From an uncultured Thermococci archaeon (GTDB lineage Archaea; Methanobacteriota_B; Thermococci; Methanofastidiosales; B48-G16), in NCBI GenBank assembly GCA_964595645.1, contig CAZQQT010000003.1, positions 64,001-128,000 on the forward strand: a stretch of DNA of 64,000 nucleotides, read 5' to 3'. The notes beneath the pieces are model-generated. The model did no database searches. It was not told the DNA's origin and saw only the letters and a list, made by a program, of their open reading frames with translations. Positions 824 through 40,125 of the stretch are shown here, piece by piece (position 1 is the first letter of the stretch; the number at the start of each line of letters is the position of its first letter). A program made the position numbers and the translations under genes.

Positions 824-2044
824 TTATATTTCCCCTTCTCCCACTATTGCTTGCATCTTCTTGAATAGCTCCGGTTTCTTCTTAAAAAGTTCGACCATCT
901 CTATAAATTTTTTCATCTCTGGTAAAACTTCTGAGTCTTCTATAGCGATATCTGGGAAATCTCCGCCAAGTTTGGTGCTCCGCATTTGGAGTTTCACTGC
1001 TTCTTCTTCATTCAGGACCGCTCCACACCGGCCACAGAACCGATCTGTGGGTCCATTAGTGTATCCACACCGTGGACACTCTTTGGGTCCAAACTCTTCC
1101 TCCTTTTCATTCTCGTCTTTTGTCTCTATCCCGTAATGTTTGAGGAGCGTCTTATCCACATCTCGGCCACTGAGATGGACGTAGGTAGCTGGCATATCAC
1201 TCCCCTGCACCCACCCAAAGTATTCGTTCATCTCGGCCTCGGTGAGCACACCAGCCAAGTGAGTAGCCCGAGAGTGTCGGAACACGTGGGGGGTCACGTT
1301 CTTATCGATCCCGGCCTCCTTGGCGATCTTCTTAATTCTCTGAGAGATCCCTTGATAGGTGATTCCTTTTTTTTCATAATTCGTGGAGAGATTCACCCAG
1401 AGGGGAGCGTCTTTATTCTCCTTATCAGGATGCATCTCGATCCACTTCACCAATGCAGAGGAGGATGAGACCACCCGTACTCTCCTTTCTCCTGTTTTTC
1501 CTTTCACCTTAATGACCGCTCCATGATCGTCGAACTCCACATTTCTCATTCTCAAACTTGCCAACTCCCCCACTCTCAGCCCACCCTCGTACAGGACCGC
1601 GATCATGGCCTTGTTCCGTGGGTGGTCCGCCGTTTCGATCATGCTTTTTACTTCCTGTTTCGTGAGGAGGTCTTCCGGGAGCTTCTTTTTATTGTTTCGT
1701 ATTGTTGTTTTCACATCTTCTGTGAGCTCCCCCTTCCCCAGCCACCGGAAGAACCGTTTTAACACGACCTTGTAGTCTTTCTTGGTGTAGTCCGAGTACT
1801 CAGATTGTTCTAACTGAGAAAGAAATCGCACCACTTCGTCTTCATCCCATTCGGTAAATGTTTTATCCGTTTTCTCGGCGATGACCTTCAGGTGGTTCGC
1901 GTACTTCAGCACCCGTGCCTTGGTCAGGCCCTCGGCGAACAACTTCTCGAGGAACTTCATGATGAGTTCAGCGTTCTCCCCGTTCTCTATCCCCCGGATC
2001 CGCTCCCTCACATTCTCCAGCTGGTACTCAAAATCGTACAACAT
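824..2044 (-). CDS. tyrosine integrase, archaeal SNJ2-like family with C-terminal Zn ribbon
   Basis: Catalytic R (GGLRVGEL), K (KGKTG), HxxR (PHVFRH), W (YFGW), Y (ATYVHL); C-terminal CPRCG...CGRCG. Confidence 0.9.
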   Translation of the reverse strand: MLYDFEYQLENVRERIRGIENGENAELIMKFLEKLFAEGLTKARVLKYANHLKVIAEKTDKTFTEWDEDEVVRFLSQLEQSEYSDYTKKDYKVVLKRFFRWLGKGELTEDVKTTIRNNKKKLPEDLLTKQEVKSMIETADHPRNKAMIAVLYEGGLRVGELASLRMRNVEFDDHGAVIKVKGKTGERRVRVVSSSSALVKWIEMHPDKENKDAPLWVNLSTNYEKKGITYQGISQRIKKIAKEAGIDKNVTPHVFRHSRATHLAGVLTEAEMNEYFGWVQGSDMPATYVHLSGRDVDKTLLKHYGIETKDENEKEEEFGPKECPRCGYTNGPTDRFCGRCGAVLNEEEAVKLQMRSTKLGGDFPDIAIEDSEVLPEMKKFIEMVELFKKKPELFKKMQAIVGEGEI

Positions 2045-23905: not shown

Positions 23906-24328
23906 TCATTTTATTTGAACATCTGTTATATCATAATGTCTGTTGAGTAACGATCTTATTCTTTTTATATTTTTGCCAGACTTTCCTATTACAAGGCCTT
24001 TTTTTTCTCGTGGTACTTCTATTGTTGCTACCCTTTTATTGTTTTTCTTAGAAATAACGAATGAATTCAACGTTATAGGTCTCAACATATTCTTTATAAA
24101 CTCTTCGGGATCATCGGTGTATCCCACAACCTCTATATCTTTCCCTGACATCTTGGACATTCTTTTTATATTGGATCCTTTTCTACCTATGGCCAGTCCA
24201 ACATCTTTTTCTTCTACAACAAACGTGAGTTTGTCGTCCCCCTTAAGACAATCAATCACATTTGCCCCAGTTATGTTTTCAAAGATGTTTATGCACTTTA
24301 TCTCTTCCGTTCCGAGTTTTAATCCCAT
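23906..24328 (-). CDS. nusA: archaeal NusA (KH domains)
   Basis: Two GxxG KH motifs (IGRKG, IGKSG); operon position. Confidence 0.95.
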   Translation of the reverse strand: MGLKLGTEEIKCINIFENITGANVIDCLKGDDKLTFVVEEKDVGLAIGRKGSNIKRMSKMSGKDIEVVGYTDDPEEFIKNMLRPITLNSFVISKKNNKRVATIEVPREKKGLVIGKSGKNIKRIRSLLNRHYDITDVQIK

Positions 24329-34148: not shown

Positions 34149-36788
34149 TTATATCTTTTCAGTTTGTTTTTTTACGAGATCATGATCTTTATAGAGGTAC
34201 TTAGCTATCTCAACTATCACGATAATGCCGATACTCGCGAGGAGAATCACGATCCAGCTCTGCAGTCCGAGAGAGGTAGTTCCTACATACTTTTGGAGGA
34301 AGGGGATATATATCACACATAACTGCATGGCAAATGACGTGAAAAACGCAGCGATGAGATACAGGTTGTTAAACAGCCCTAGTTTGAAGATAGAGTATCT
34401 CTCCGATTTACAGTTGAAGGAGTTGAAGATCTCTATCATGGTAAGGAGTGTGAAAGCCATTGTTTGAGCCTCAAGAAGACCGGCAGTCTGTTTTGTATAG
34501 TAAAATATAGGAAGTATTACTATCGTTTCATAGATTCCTACGCCTATGATAAGTGCGCTTATTCTACCTTTAAAGATGCTTTCACCCTTTTTTCTGGGGT
34601 TTCTTTGCATTATGTCCGGATCTTTTGGATCGACACTGAGTGCAATTGCAGGAAGCCCATCAGTAAGTAAATTTAAGAACAGGAGTTGGATAGCAATGAG
34701 GGGAAGACCAAGATCGAGGAACACCGCTAGTGTCATGATCAGGATCTCGCCAACATTTCCAGAAAGAAGATGTGCGAGATATTTCTTTATATTATCGTAG
34801 ATTCCTCGTCCCTCCTCTACAGCAGCCTCAATGGAAGCGAAGTTGTCATCGGTAAGAATCATGTCAGATGATTCCTTTGCTACATCTGTTCCTGTGATCC
34901 CCATAGCAATGCCGATGCTCGATTTCTTCAGCGCGGGTGCATCATTTACACCATCTCCCGTCATTGCCACAACTTCACCCTTCTTTTTAAGTGCGCTGAC
35001 AATCCTCATCTTATGTTCAGGAGAGACTCTGGCGTAGACCTTCACTCTTTCGACTATCTCTTCAAACTCTGCATCGCTCATTTCATTGAGTTCCTCCCCC
35101 ATGAGAATGAGGTCTCCTTCCTCGTAGATTCGTAACTCTTCTGCAATCGCTTTGGCTGTAAGTTTTTGATCCCCCGTGATCATCACTACCTTTATCCCTG
35201 ATTCTCCGCAGAGTTTTATAGCCCTCTCCGCCTCTTCTCTCGGCGGATCGAGCATCGCAGTAAGTGCAGTAAAAATGAGATTCTCTTCTTCGAGGGTGTC
35301 TCCTTCTTTGTATGCGAGGGCAAGTACACGGAGACCCTCAGAAGCAAACTTTTCGTTCATCTCTTGTATCTTCTTTTTGTCTTTGTTAGTTATCTCTCTT
35401 ACACCGTTTTTATCATGAATATACGAGCATTTTTCGAGAAGAATCTCTGGCGCTCCCTTTGCGTACACTTTATCATTCAGTACAGACATCATCTTTCTTT
35501 CGGAGGTAAAGCTCATCTCGTTCGTTCTTGGGAATTGTTCTTCCAATTTCGATTTTTCTAGTCCTATTTTCTTCGCGAGCACAAGAAGTGCACCTTCTGT
35601 CGGATCTCCGATAATTCCATAGCCTTTGTTGTGGGCAAGTTCAGCGTCATTACAGAGTACTGCTATTTTCCCCACAATACCTAGGGTATCAGAGTCAATT
35701 TTCTTCTTTTTCACATAGAAGTTCCCTTCCGAATCGTAGCCCACACCACTCACATCAATCACATCGTTGTGGAAGAAGAGTTTTTTGACCGTCATCTCGT
35801 TTTTGGTAAGTGTTCCAGTTTTATCAGTGCAGATGATTGTGGTGCATCCGAGCGTTTCTACTGCTGGTAATTTTCGTATGATTGCATTCCGTTTTACCAT
35901 TTTTTGTACGCCTAACGCGAGGGTAATGGTAACAACTGCCGGAAGTGCTTCAGGGACAGCAGCCACAGCGAGAGAGACTCCCCATATAAACATTTCCAGC
36001 GGCTCGTAGCCCCGTAGAATACCAATACCTGCAGCCACAAAACATATAATAAGCGCAGCGATTCCAAGAGTTTTTCCTAATCCTTCTAGATTCTTCTGGA
36101 GAGGAGTCATTTCCTTTTCCACGCCTTTAATCATCTTGGCTATCTTTCCAAATTCTGTCTCCATCCCCGTGCTGTACACGACACATTTCGCACGTCCAAA
36201 GGTTACTACGGTCCCGGAAAACACAATGTTAATTCTCTCAGCAAGAGGGAGATCCTTGGGAAGAGCTTCAGGAGATTTCGTAACAGGGACGGACTCACCT
36301 GTTAACGCGGCTTCGTCTACTCGAAGATTGTGACATGAAATGATTCTACAGTCTGCTGGGACTTTATCTCCCACATCCAAAAGAACGACGTCTCCAGGAA
36401 CAATTTCCGTTGTATCGATTGTTCTCTCGGTGCCATCTCTCACTACTCTGGCCTTGGGAGAGCTCATTTTCTTCAACGCTTCCAACGACTTTTCTGCCTT
36501 GTACTCTTGGACAAACCCCAAAATACCAGAGGCAACGAGTATAATTAATATAACAATAGCATCAGCAGTCTCACCAATAAAGAAGGAAACGATCACAGCA
36601 ATAATTAAGATGATCATGAGAAAATCCTTGAACTGACTCAGAAAGAGTGTCACTACTGAAATTCCTTTCTCTTCCTTCAGTTCATTCGGTCCATATTTCT
36701 CAAGCCGTTTTTCCACTTCTGCTTGTGTAAGTCCATGTTCTGTTGTTTCAAGTTCCTTCAGCACCTGAGATATACTCTTGGAATACAT
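34149..36788 (-). CDS. P-type ATPase, Ca2+-transporting (type IIA-like)
   Basis: [40 protein letters not shown]. Confidence 0.95.
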
Positions 36789-36885
36789 GTGTACTCGTAC
36801 TGGTACATCTACGGAGATATATAAACCCTGTGGTCTCCTCAATATATATTAGTTTAAATTAATAAAGTTATATATCCATACGCTT

Positions 36886-36915
36886 TAAATTGTGCAATAA
36901 CTTTTTGTAGTCTCA
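36886..36915 (+). repeat. left 30-bp inverted repeat of xerA cassette
   Basis: TAAATTGTGCAATAACTTTTTGTAGTCTCA; 27/30 identical to the reverse complement of 38279-38308. Confidence 0.8.
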
Positions 36916-37052
36916 TTTATGGTGATCGATTATTATACACAAAATAGTACCCTTTATTATAGATTTTTTTAAGAAATTCTTTTTTAATAAATCTTTTAAA
37001 TAAAATTCTTTTTTTAGAAATCTTTTTATAGACTTTTATTCATAAGATTTTT

Positions 37053-37883
37053 TTAAATAGCTTCTTTATTTAAGGGATGACTCTTTTTGTATGTACTTTC
37101 TTTATACTTGTTTGTTACGTGAGTATACTGCTGTGTAGTAGAGAGGTCGCTATGTCCAAGGAGATCTTTGATGACAACAATATCTGCATCATTTTGAAGT
37201 AGGTGAGTAGCAAAGGTGTGTCTCAGCGTATGGGGTGTGACGTCTTTCTCTATATTTGCCTTTTCAGCATATTTTTTTACGATACTTTGTACAGAACGCT
37301 GAGACATTCTTTCTCCATATTTATTTAGTATTAAGGCATTTTTTTCTTTTTTTCTTTCTTTTATGTATTTTTTCACTAATTTTTTTGTGTTTTCATCCAT
37401 AAATACAATTCTATCCTTTGATCCTTTCCCTAAATGTACAAAAACTTTTTCTTCTTCGATATCATTGACATTTAACTTACATAACTCGGAGACACGCAGT
37501 CCAGTAGCGTATAGAAGCTGTATTATCACTTTATCTCTCAAATTATCGGCGGCATTTAATAAAGCCTTTATCTCGCTACGATTTAGGAATACAGGAAGAG
37601 TCTTAGAGACCCGTGGAAGATCGATATCTTCAGCGATTTTCATGTTTTTTGTCTTATAAAAACATTTGATAGCACTTAAATATCTGTATAAGGTCTTTAA
37701 AGATAAATTTTTTTCCTTTTGGAGCTTGAACATGTATTTTTTTATTTCTTTAGCCTTTATTTTTTCATAAGGCTTGCCAATGTCTTCAAAAAAGTTTTTC
37801 AACGTATTTTTGTAGTTCCTTATTGTGTTATCAGAGTATCCTTTCAAGCTCATCTCCATCTCAAAGTCTTCTATCGCTTTCAT
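37053..37883 (-). CDS. xerA: XerA-like site-specific tyrosine recombinase
   Basis: N-terminal domain (S.NT..NY), ATGLRVSEL, GKG.KDR, TPHTLRHTFATHLL, LLGH, TTQQYTHV, all catalytic residues present; SD AAGGTG before ATG 37883. Confidence 0.88.
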   Translation of the reverse strand: MKAIEDFEMEMSLKGYSDNTIRNYKNTLKNFFEDIGKPYEKIKAKEIKKYMFKLQKEKNLSLKTLYRYLSAIKCFYKTKNMKIAEDIDLPRVSKTLPVFLNRSEIKALLNAADNLRDKVIIQLLYATGLRVSELCKLNVNDIEEEKVFVHLGKGSKDRIVFMDENTKKLVKKYIKERKKEKNALILNKYGERMSQRSVQSIVKKYAEKANIEKDVTPHTLRHTFATHLLQNDADIVVIKDLLGHSDLSTTQQYTHVTNKYKESTYKKSHPLNKEAI

Positions 37884-37887
37884 TCTT

Positions 37888-37921
37888 ACACCTTCGTATA
37901 ACATACATTATACGAAGTTAC
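37888..37921. promoter_or_regulatory. loxP-like / dif-like recombination site overlapping the xerA transcription start and SD
   Basis: ACACCTTCGTATA-ACATACAT-TATACGAAGTTAC; perfect 10-bp inverted arms around a 6-bp spacer; 30/34 identical to loxP. Confidence 0.85.
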
Positions 37922-37929
37922 TATTTAAA
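37922..37929 (-). promoter_or_regulatory. TATA box of xerA
   Basis: Minus strand CGAAACC-TTTAAATA; predicted TSS about 37900. Confidence 0.65.
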
Positions 37930-37974
37930 GGTTTCGGTCCAAATCAGCTCCATGTCGAAAATTGCATTTTTCAG

Positions 37975-37996
37975 TGAAATACCCCGGGGTATTTCA
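37975..37996. repeat. perfect 22-bp palindrome
   Basis: TGAAATACCCCGGGGTATTTCA equals its own reverse complement. Confidence 0.9.
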
Positions 37997-38278
37997 AGAC
38001 AAAAATACTGTTTTTCACACTTTGGCGAAAAATAGATACTTAATCCGGTATACGGCGGCGAGGATTGTGTGATTGTGTAGGAAGAAACAGTTTATAAAAA
38101 ATTTTTTTAAAAAATCGAAAAAATTTAATTAAACTTCTAGAAAGAGTATATAAAATTTAGTTCTTTTTTATAGATTTAAACTATTAAGTTTAAATTAAAG
38201 ACTCTAATTTTTAAGATTCTATTTATTATATCTTTTATAATACATATATTTTTCAGCATAATAGTTTTGTTCTATTTT

Positions 38279-38308
38279 TGAGACTTCAAAAAATTTTTGC
38301 ACAATTTA
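38279..38308 (-). repeat. right 30-bp inverted repeat of xerA cassette
   Basis: TGAGACTTCAAAAAATTTTTGCACAATTTA; partner of 36886-36915. Confidence 0.8.
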
Positions 38309-38387
38309 CAATGTTTCATTATTTAAGCATATATTTTTATCATCCGCGAACAGAAAATTTTTTATCTTTTGATAAGAAGTATTCACT

Positions 38388-38591
38388 ATGGCGAGAAAGA
38401 AAAGTGAGATTGAGAAATTGAACATGACAATGGATCTCTCTACGCTTACTACCTACTTGGATGATCTCCAAAGGAGATGGTCCTTCAGTACCATTCGTCA
38501 GGTGTCGATTCGTGAAGGACGAAGAAGAACTGTTGCAACAATTGATAAACTGTTTGAAGATCTTAGAGAAGAAATTAAGACTCTAAAGTGA
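38388..38591 (+). CDS. small hypothetical protein (67 aa)
   Basis: Clean ORF with a TATA-like element about 26 nt upstream of the ATG. Confidence 0.6.
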   Translation: MARKKSEIEKLNMTMDLSTLTTYLDDLQRRWSFSTIRQVSIREGRRRTVATIDKLFEDLREEIKTLK

Positions 38592-38676
38592 GACAAAATC
38601 TATGATGTGTCTAAATGATATTTTTTGACCTTTTAACCTAGGTTAATAAGATAAAAAAATATGAAGAAAGAACGTG

Positions 38677-40125
38677 TTATTGTTTCTTCCTTAAAACATC
38701 TACAAGATCCGCTATTTTCACCCGTTCCTGCTCCATGGAGTCCCTATCTCGTATCGTGACGGTGTCGTCTTCTAGTGTATCGTAATCGATGGTGATGCAG
38801 TATGGTGTTCCTATCTCATCCTGCCTCCTGTACCGTTTCCCGATAGATCCTGAGTCATCGTACCGTACGCGGAATTCCTTCGAAAGGATGCTGTAGACTT
38901 TCTGTGCTTTTTTTGCAAGGTTATCCTTACTCATCAGCGGGAAAACAGCACAGTAGTAAGGTGCTACTCTTTTTGGAAGTTTTAACGTTGTTCTTTTTTC
39001 AGTTTCTTCGTAACCGATATCGAGCAGTGCCCATAAGTTCCTATCTATCCCAAAACTTAACTCTAACACATGCGGAATAAACTTTTTCCCGTCTACATGC
39101 ACCGTTAAGTTTTCATTGGACAACTTCTGGTGCCTTGAAAGGTCGTGATCCGTTCTATAGTGGATCCCAGCCACTTCCTTAAATCCTCCAATGGAGTCCA
39201 TTTTTAGTTCAATATCCCAGTGGATCTTGTTGTAGAACGCTTTCTCATCTTCAGAAAGTTCTCTAAATCTAAAGATCTCTTTTGGAAGGTTTAACGTCTC
39301 GAGATAAAAATCTTGGATTTTTGCCATGTGGAATACATAAAATCTTGGCAGATCGAGATCCTTACATCTTACTTCTCTTGTTTTTTTTCCCCTATTCTCT
39401 ATAGCGCAGATTCGTAGTTTCTTCTCCTTTACCGAATCGAAATTTTCATGGGTGTCAAAGTTATCGGGATCGAAGAATATCTGAAGTTCGGCCTGATGGA
39501 ACTCTCGCAGACGGTAGAATCCTTGTCGTGGAGAAATTTCATTTCTAAACGCCTTTCCTACAATTGCGAGACCTAGCGGTATTTTATTTCTCTGTGCGAT
39601 GAAGGATCGTTTAAACGCTAAAAAAGCACCTTGGGCTGTTTCCGGTCGCAGGTACCCCTGAATAACAGAATCTCCAGCACCTATCTCTGATCCAAACATA
39701 AGATTGAAAAATTTTACACTCAATGGCCCTTTACACTGTGGACATCGCAGGTCGTGTTCATTGATGACTTCCTCTATCTCCTCTAGATTCATCCCTTCGG
39801 AGGAGATTTCTAGTTGTTCCTCGGTGAGATCATCAGCTTTGTAGCGGGAGTGGCAAGAGCTACACTCTGCAAGAATATCATTAAAGCTTTCAAGATGCCC
39901 CGATGCTTCGAACACTTCCTTGGGCAGTATATTTGACGTTGAAACTTCATGGAAGTTGGGATGCAACCCCAGAAAATGGGATCTCCAGAGGGTTTCCCAT
40001 GAATTCTTTATCTTCGTCCCCAGTGGTCCGTAGTCCCAGAATCCTTTTACACCACCGTATATTTCAGCAGAGGGAAAAAGTATTCCCCGTCTCAGACAGA
40101 GGTTCATTATTTCATCAGTTTTCAT
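38677..40125 (-). CDS. glyS: glycyl-tRNA synthetase (alpha2, archaeal/eukaryotic type)
   Basis: YLRPETAQG, FRNEISPR, REF.QAE, SFGIDR, SIGKRYRRQDEIG. Confidence 0.96.
   Translation of the reverse strand: MKTDEIMNLCLRRGILFPSAEIYGGVKGFWDYGPLGTKIKNSWETLWRSHFLGLHPNFHEVSTSNILPKEVFEASGHLESFNDILAECSSCHSRYKADDLTEEQLEISSEGMNLEEIEEVINEHDLRCPQCKGPLSVKFFNLMFGSEIGAGDSVIQGYLRPETAQGAFLAFKRSFIAQRNKIPLGLAIVGKAFRNEISPRQGFYRLREFHQAELQIFFDPDNFDTHENFDSVKEKKLRICAIENRGKKTREVRCKDLDLPRFYVFHMAKIQDFYLETLNLPKEIFRFRELSEDEKAFYNKIHWDIELKMDSIGGFKEVAGIHYRTDHDLSRHQKLSNENLTVHVDGKKFIPHVLELSFGIDRNLWALLDIGYEETEKRTTLKLPKRVAPYYCAVFPLMSKDNLAKKAQKVYSILSKEFRVRYDDSGSIGKRYRRQDEIGTPYCITIDYDTLEDDTVTIRDRDSMEQERVKIADLVDVLRKKQ

Follow-up and report, generated by a model that had tools for sequence, protein, structure and literature searches.

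Within the window, a stretch of 64,000 nucleotides from the genome of an uncultured Thermococci archaeon, a recombinase gene is found with a short palindrome immediately in front of its start codon. Promoter elements, a second palindrome and a pair of convergent repeats surround the two. The features, in the order of their coordinates, are:

36886-36915, plus strand: left flanking repeat TAAATTGTGCAATAACTTTTTGTAGTCTCA, pointing to dif
37053-37883, minus strand: xerA coding sequence, 276 aa from the ATG at 37883, stop codon counted in
37888-37921, plus strand: 34-bp span aligned with loxP, 30/34 identical to the loxP of phage P1
37889-37893, minus strand: Shine-Dalgarno sequence AGGTG, overlapping the outer end of the gene-proximal arm, 5 nt 5′ of the ATG
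37891-37918, no strand: predicted dif core of 11-6-11 architecture, unique, and kept beside xerA in relatives
37891-37901, 37902-37907 and 37908-37918: gene-proximal arm, spacer and distal arm of the predicted dif
37922-37929 and 37930-37937, minus strand: TATA box TTTAAATA and BRE-like element CCGAAACC, directly 5′ of dif, their function predicted from archaeal promoter geometry
37975-37996, no strand: perfect 22-bp palindrome with the halves TGAAATACCCC and GGGGTATTTCA, ~45 nt 5′ of the TATA box
38279-38308, minus strand: right flanking repeat, an inverted counterpart of the left one at 36886-36915, pointing to dif

The recombinase gene is a bona fide archaeal xerA, in agreement with the initial annotation, which had described it as XerA-like. 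Its product passes the NCBIfam equivalog model NF040815 (XerA_Arch) with 289.2 bits against a cut-off of 220, while the XerC, XerD, XerS and integron-integrase models of the same search all score below their cut-offs. Pfam matches in the protein are Phage_integrase and SAM-like N-domains. The closest solved structures are the XerA proteins of P. abyssi (4A8E, E 5e-55) and T. acidophilum (E 2e-42), and the identity of the 276-aa protein to the XerA of Thermococcales is 38–42%. The catalytic residues expected of a tyrosine recombinase, R130, K153/K156, H218, R221, H244 and Y253 (276-aa numbering), are invariant in the XerA alignment and match those of P. abyssi XerA. An XerA orthologue is present in 26/26 high-quality related genomes searched. 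In a maximum likelihood tree of the XerA/XerC/XerD/Cre type, an analysis that the initial annotation had proposed, the protein is nested among the XerA proteins of its order, at 100/98 support, with Cre far off.

The open frame extends beyond the gene as given above. The ORF at 37053-37904 on the minus strand amounts to 283 aa, and its in-frame upstream ATG at 37904 falls within dif. This upstream ATG is probably not the start in use. Both the XerA model and the orthologues start near residue 8–12 of the 283-aa frame, and in every orthologue the ATG lies 6–16 nt past a dif-like site. The ATG at 37883, giving 276 aa, is therefore the likely start.

The palindrome lies 7 nt 5′ of this ATG. The letters at 37888-37921 read ACACCTTCGTATA-ACATACAT-TATACGAAGTTAC, exactly as first written down, and the core at 37891-37918 divides into two 11-bp arms around a 6-bp spacer. 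The arms are complementary at 10/11 positions and form a perfect inverted repeat of 10 bp, which confirms the earlier reading as an 11-6-11 site with 10-bp inverted arms. The spacer is CATACA on the plus strand and TGTATG on the gene strand. The palindrome was matched in 0/100 shuffles of the window, and a scan for further copies, also suggested earlier, finds only this one in the 1.97-Mb genome (14 contigs). The frame TAA-N6-TTA in an 11-6-11 arrangement fits archaeal and bacterial dif (PMC11840125). The palindrome is most likely the single dif of the chromosome.

Palindromes of the same architecture lie directly 5′ of xerA in seven modules from three families, those of G000 (family f1) and of six further genomes, G003, G005 and G002 (f1), G011 and G008 (f4) and G007 (f3), in which the palindrome stands 6–16 nt 5′ of the likely xerA start codon. 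The proposed comparison of xerA upstream regions thus returns an equivalent palindrome in six related genomes. The arms are of the type CTTCGTATAA, CGTCGTATAA or GTTCGCATAA depending on the lineage, and both sides are altered alike, as expected where a homodimer binds the site. These symmetric arm changes, at the same place in independent related assemblies, make it very probable that the palindrome is the cognate dif and a native site rather than vector, as the initial annotation had argued.

Homologous sites are found in 13 related genomes. Genus g3 of family f2 has kept the site, as ACGTATAA-TATACA-TTATACGC, apart from xerA. In the complete g3 genome G006 (~1.4 Mb), its coordinate is 1,295.9 kb and that of the only cdc6 gene is 593.7 kb; the distance of 702 kb corresponds to about 180 degrees. 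On the contig of the source genome, the GC skew, the AT skew and all 4-mer strand skews run without a switch at the site; the cdc6 gene lies on a different contig. When five Thermococcales genomes were searched by pattern, four yielded a single dif-type site, ATTGGATATAA-TCGGCC-TTATATCTAAA or a relative of it, and the fifth two matches, the frame TAA-N6-TTA being common to these sites. Relatives of the same class with complete genomes of 1.8–2.2 Mb bear the Thermococcales dif. The genes neighboring the module are housekeeping genes, encoding a P-type ATPase, a class II aminoacyl-tRNA synthetase (aaRS) and GatD. The ATPase gene and a small ORF, orf67, flank the module in relatives of family f1, and the aaRS gene is likewise its neighbor in G007 and in one close relative from a metagenome. 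Because the neighbors are syntenic in relatives, the module is regarded as chromosomal and not mobile.

On the gene strand, the elements in front of xerA are arranged in the order CCGAAACC, TTTAAATA, GTA, dif, TGTAAGA and ATG. The sequence cGAAAaC-TTTATAwATA occupies the same position in f1 and in G007 of f3, and an AT-rich TATA-like stretch is found in f4. With a conserved BRE/TATA element immediately 5′, the assignment of the site to the promoter region of its own gene is upheld. The centre of an archaeal TATA box usually precedes the transcription start by ~26 nt, a distance that puts the predicted start inside dif. Of the positions deviating from loxP, 2 and 4 change GAAGTTAT to GAAGGTGT on the gene strand. 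These two were said to create a Shine-Dalgarno sequence spaced as in nusA, and this holds: GGTG occurs 5–8 nt 5′ of the ATG in 7/7 modules, and AGGTGTAA is enriched in the window (8 observed vs 1.6 expected) and also stands 2 nt before the ATG of the 140-aa ORF at 23906-24328 on the minus strand, taken here as the nusA in question. An Rfam search over 36500-39000 gave no match above noise. A terminator call on the plus strand, made by a sigma-70-type scan that is unsuited to an archaeon, was discarded; the element called is the dif hairpin itself.

The locus is read here, with a probability of roughly 0.8, as the chromosomal Xer/dif dimer-resolution module of this archaeal lineage. The 276-aa XerA would bind the single dif as a homodimer, on its two near-identical 11-bp arms. 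Once sister chromosomes have been joined by a crossover, XerA would recombine the two dif copies across the 6-bp spacer and return the dimer to monomers. By analogy with P. abyssi XerA, which reportedly recombines dif without partners, no partner protein would be required. The location of dif between the TATA box and the start codon has a further consequence, in that XerA sitting on dif would mask the start of transcription and occlude its own promoter. XerA thus probably represses its own gene.

The resemblance of the site to loxP was assessed against the annotated "loxP recombination site" of phage P1 in GenBank X03453.1. The near-perfect match reported in the initial annotation is reproduced, at 30/34 identity with mismatches only at positions 2, 4, 14 and 34 and the same central 6 bp. 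Within the 28-bp Xer footprint, 26/28 positions are identical. A blastn comparison of a 42-nt stretch with phage DNA (2.3 Gb) retrieved the lox sites of P1, P7 and their relatives (E 3e-5). Among the relatives of the archaeon, the identity to loxP (of 34 positions) declines step by step:

family f1, including the source genome: 28-30
family f4: 27
family f2 (genus g3): 23-26
G007 (family f3): 22
Thermococcales: 15-19

The spacer found order-wide is TATACA/TGTATA, and the CATACA of the source genome, which equals the centre of loxP, is one substitution off. Judged from these sites, the loxP likeness is largely a property of the dif family of the order (22–30/34). Since it is common to the order and fades with distance, ordinary dif evolution accounts for it better than a special system does. 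The resemblance is explained by loxP being a dif-type site in its own right: it has the inner arm TCGTATA, as this dif does, and a crossover region of the TGTAT type. The E. coli dif, GGTGCGCATAA-TGTATA-TTATGTTAAAT, is identical to loxP at about 18/28 positions. A literature search found no paper stating that archaeal dif resembles loxP.

A residue that may read these arms can be named. Throughout the order, XerA has L/M-S-x-R in the DNA-reading helix that precedes the H-x-x-R box, where the XerA of Thermococcales has LSPKT. The motifs x-R-x (XerC) and x-K-x (XerA) were described as dif-binding by Cortez et al. (PMC2958812). The residue and the arm covary, with LS-x-R accompanying CG arms in the order and LSPKT accompanying GGATATAA arms in Thermococcales. 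An hhalign comparison of Xer-like and Cre-like profiles (95% probability, 18% identity) places R196 of XerA on R259 of Cre, each being invariant in its own alignment. In Cre-loxP structures, R259 reads the C-G pair in the TTCG step of the arm. It is thus probable that XerA in this order reads CG arms through the same arginine as Cre.

The same arms are present well outside the order. A metagenome scan for CTTCGTATAA-N6-TTATACGAAG produced 61 loci, 26 of which lie mostly ~165 nt 5′ of Cre-like open frames (40–44% identical to Cre). Another 16 of the 61 lie 0–100 nt 5′ of Xer-like genes at no fewer than four non-sister tree positions. The Xer-like genes behind such arms include XerC/D-like genes of 310–351 aa and a second XerA type on contigs of 24% GC. 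In viruses, the scan found exact loxP next to Cre in nearly all cases. The presence of the arms before both Cre-like and unrelated Xer-like genes indicates that such arms occur widely and are no peculiarity of this XerA. Such sharing would fit common ancestry, or a common reading head, of both families.

The repeats that flank the module converge on dif. The left and right copies match at 27/30 positions in inverted orientation, and over 61 nt the inverted repeat reaches 44/61 identities, against at most 38 in 30 shuffles. The strict motif TGTGCA-N2-AAyTwTTTG has two copies in the whole genome, both facing dif. Such a convergent pair also brackets the module in three relatives, G005, G011 and G008, as well as in a metagenome contig (L082); in G007 the left side bears two copies and the right side one, all directed inward. 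Arrays of a related repeat, TTGCAATAATTAT, are found on both sides of dif in genus g3, within a gene-poor stretch of at least 2.6 kb, and xerA is 68 kb away. The repeats therefore belong with dif rather than with a mobile cassette carrying xerA. Inverted repeats around the dif of M. stadtmanae were noted by Cortez et al. (PMC2958812).

The dimer-resolution module is not the only way to read the locus. The initial annotation proposed a natural Cre-like system. Taken to the full, this would mean a Cre/lox-type system in which a compact enzyme for a near-loxP sequence, either related to Cre or convergent with it, could replace Cre on loxP, and Cre could act on the site found here. The site does come near to loxP at 30/34, with the complete 6-bp crossover region included and 26/28 in the Xer footprint. 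The alignment of XerA R196 with Cre R259 points the same way, as do the identical arms that precede Cre-like (42–44% identical) and Xer-like genes in metagenomes. T. acidophilum XerA, as far as the account of Jo et al. (2017) in PMC8371274 goes, accepted arm variants in vitro. The protein, however, argues against such a system. The Cre chains in the PDB match at E 0.8–1.9, BLASTP against P1 Cre (from X03453.1) yields 18% identity over 159 aa (E 2e-5) in the N-terminal part only, and Cre with three metagenomic Cre-like proteins is separated by a branch of 5.18 substitutions per site; by PDB search, BLASTP and tree alike, the protein does not qualify as a Cre homologue. The dyad symmetry ends at 10–11 bp and not at 13, which is the Xer architecture. 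In place of 13-bp arms around an asymmetric 8-bp spacer, 10/13 arm positions are complementary and the outer ones vary in relatives. The likeness to loxP, moreover, is order-wide and grades off with distance. A protein of the XerA clade, separated from Cre by that branch, with its site offers nothing beyond any single-recombinase Xer/dif pair; the claim of a natural Cre-like system is not borne out, and this reading is considered unlikely. A historical variant supposes that loxP-type arms (CTTCGTATA) are an old, shared recognition sequence of single-recombinase Xer/dif modules ancestral to Cre/lox, in which case XerA would recombine authentic loxP and Cre would recombine this dif. A separate proposal is that the convergent repeats around dif act across the order as accessory or boundary elements. 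Both proposals are doubtful; a cross-reaction of XerA with loxP, taken by itself, is possible.

Alternatively, a lox site could have been brought into the contig by vector or engineering contamination or by an assembly chimera, since lox sites are frequent in cloning vectors and the genome is a draft of 14 contigs. Nevertheless, four positions differ from loxP, we know of no lox variant that the site equals, and no exact loxP or other lox-like site occurs elsewhere in the genome. With an equivalent site bearing lineage-specific changes in six independent related assemblies and several metagenome contigs, and with flanking genes syntenic with those of relatives, an artificial origin has a negligible chance. 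The unit of xerA and its site might instead be mobile, as a cassette lying between the 30-bp inverted repeats, or the palindrome could be the att site of an inserted element and not the chromosomal dif. In favor of this are the significant inverted repeat on the two sides of the unit, the low GC content of the segment and the presence of other integrases in the genome. Yet the repeat motif is confined to this locus, the unit is single-copy, and XerA belongs to all high-quality relatives searched. The flanking ATPase, orf67 and aaRS genes are kept in relatives, the related repeats of g3 go with dif and leave xerA 68 kb distant, and phage or plasmid genes are absent from the vicinity, so a mobile origin is highly improbable. 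It is also very hard to view the palindrome as a purely transcriptional element, be it the operator of another regulator or an RNA or DNA hairpin, that is no recombination site. Its position between the TATA box and the ATG would suit this, as would the terminator-like hairpin called on the plus strand; against it stand the exact 11-6-11, TAA-N6-TTA frame of dif, the g3 site that lies away from xerA and ~180 degrees from cdc6 in G006, and the lack of a plus-strand gene for the hairpin to terminate.

The Xer/dif module proposed here has close counterparts among known systems. With the archaeal XerA/dif of P. abyssi, T. kodakarensis and T. acidophilum it shares the protein family, the single recombinase and the 28-bp 11-6-11 near-palindrome, usually one per genome, with its TAA-N6-TTA frame. 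The dif of Thermococcales is not adjacent to xerA (PMC2958812), whereas here dif abuts xerA inside the promoter. The arms differ as well, being GGATATAA with an x-K-x helix in Thermococcales and of the CG type (CTTCGTATAA) with an x-R-x helix, the XerC type, here. An individual xerA/dif module was noted in some archaea (PMC5357621), and in Haloferax and Halobacterium the xerA operon is preceded by a dif-like site (PMC11840125). Thus xerA/dif modules are already described, and the locus is no new class of recombination system. Neither PMC5357621 nor PMC11840125, as far as read, describes a dif placed between TATA box and ATG, or convergent flanking repeats. XerS/difSL of streptococci and lactococci is likewise a dimer-resolution module in which one recombinase is linked to its own site. 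However, difSL spans 31 bp around an 11-bp centre and XerS depends on FtsK, while the site here is a classical 28-mer in an archaeon; archaea are without an FtsK homologue (PMC8371274, PMC5357621). Cre/loxP of P1 is alike in having the gene beside the site, with loxP ~420 bp upstream of cre, and in resolving dimers by a single recombinase with no partner, as proposed for XerA/dif. Cre has 343 aa and XerA 276 aa, and the two are related only through the tyrosine-recombinase fold. The symmetry of loxP extends over 13 bp around an 8-bp centre, that of dif over 10–11 bp around a 6-bp centre, and the former system belongs to a phage, the latter here to an archaeal chromosome.

The study provides a confident annotation of dif and xerA for a poorly known, uncultured archaeal order. 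A dif inside the promoter of its own recombinase hints at a simple autoregulatory loop. The loxP arms and crossover region appear as part of a widespread dif-type family that is served by archaeal XerA, bacterial Xer-like and Cre-like enzymes, probably by way of one and the same arginine. Cre, if produced in such organisms, could conceivably cut their chromosomal dif, and lox sites may likewise be acted on by XerA-type enzymes. Should XerA act on loxP, a smaller enzyme, thermally and phylogenetically distinct, would be at hand for lox-type sites.

The flanking repeats and the 22-bp palindrome lie outside what a bare Xer/dif model explains. The convergent repeats that bracket dif may serve resolution selectivity or the organisation of a terminus domain. 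In T. kodakarensis, the intergenic DNA around dif forms an SMC-dependent domain boundary (PMC11840125), which by analogy suggests one possible role for them. The 22-bp palindrome, which lies beyond the TATA box, may act as an operator or as an accessory, second site. Related dif-like palindromes, CCAAATAA-CCCGTA-TTATTTGG, are found at the equivalent place in G011 and G008.

The following palindrome accompanies the dif site of xerA.

Window 37975-37996: perfect 22-bp palindrome, 5′ of the xerA promoter.

At the matching place, the two family f4 genomes carry a dif-like 11-6-11 palindrome, CCAAATAA-CCCGTA-TTATTTGG (G011), and a related but shorter palindrome, CAAATAA-CCCGCC-TTATTTG (G008). The upstream palindromes at loci L006 and L013 lie ~70-110 nt 5′ of dif, and in G006, the complete genome of genus g3, 284 bp separate dif from a second dif-like site. 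This arrangement is reminiscent of dif1/dif2 in T. acidophilum.

The dif region of the window is also enclosed by a convergent repeat pair, TGTGCA-N2-AAyTwTTTG (36886-36915 and 38279-38308), found nowhere else in the genome. The pair around the dif region is kept in three families. In genus g3, dif does not adjoin xerA, yet it is surrounded by arrays of a related repeat. Besides the window, such flanking repeats are represented by loci L004, L006, L013, L024 and L040, and they may be accessory or boundary elements. Immediately outside the right repeat lies a small open reading frame.

Window 38388-38591 (+): 67-aa ORF.

This ORF is kept next to the xerA/dif module in family f1 relatives, with 44-49% identity, and has no Pfam match.

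In many MAG contigs of this archaeon's order (G004:C189, G003:C165, G002:C59, G001:C46 and G024:C47/C88), the contig end coincides with dif or is no more than a few hundred bases away, the end of G004:C189 being 6 nt from the site. Flanking inverted repeats or local population variation may have caused these breaks.

Two further tyrosine recombinases of this genome, each of ~410 aa with 26-29% identity to XerA, are probably mobile-element integrases.

Window 824-2044 (-): tyrosine recombinase.
G000:C6:87203-88009: tyrosine recombinase.

Palindromes of the form TCGCATAA-N6-TTATGCGA, with varying spacers, occur in genus g3 at G029:C171:521, G027:C15:25681, G024:C63:1924 and G032:C134:1521. At least two of them have further integrase-like genes 0.7-2.2 kb away and might serve Xer-like mobile elements as attachment sites.

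In metagenomes, a Cre-like recombinase family with 40-44% identity to P1 Cre was observed at L071, L076, L078 and 23 other loci, where gene and site together may constitute chromosomal single-recombinase resolution systems. The contigs reach 180 kb with 47-57% GC, and each gene is accompanied by a lox/dif-like site, ACTTCGTATAA-TTGTTC-TTATACGAAGT, which in most loci lies ~165 nt 5′ of the open frame.
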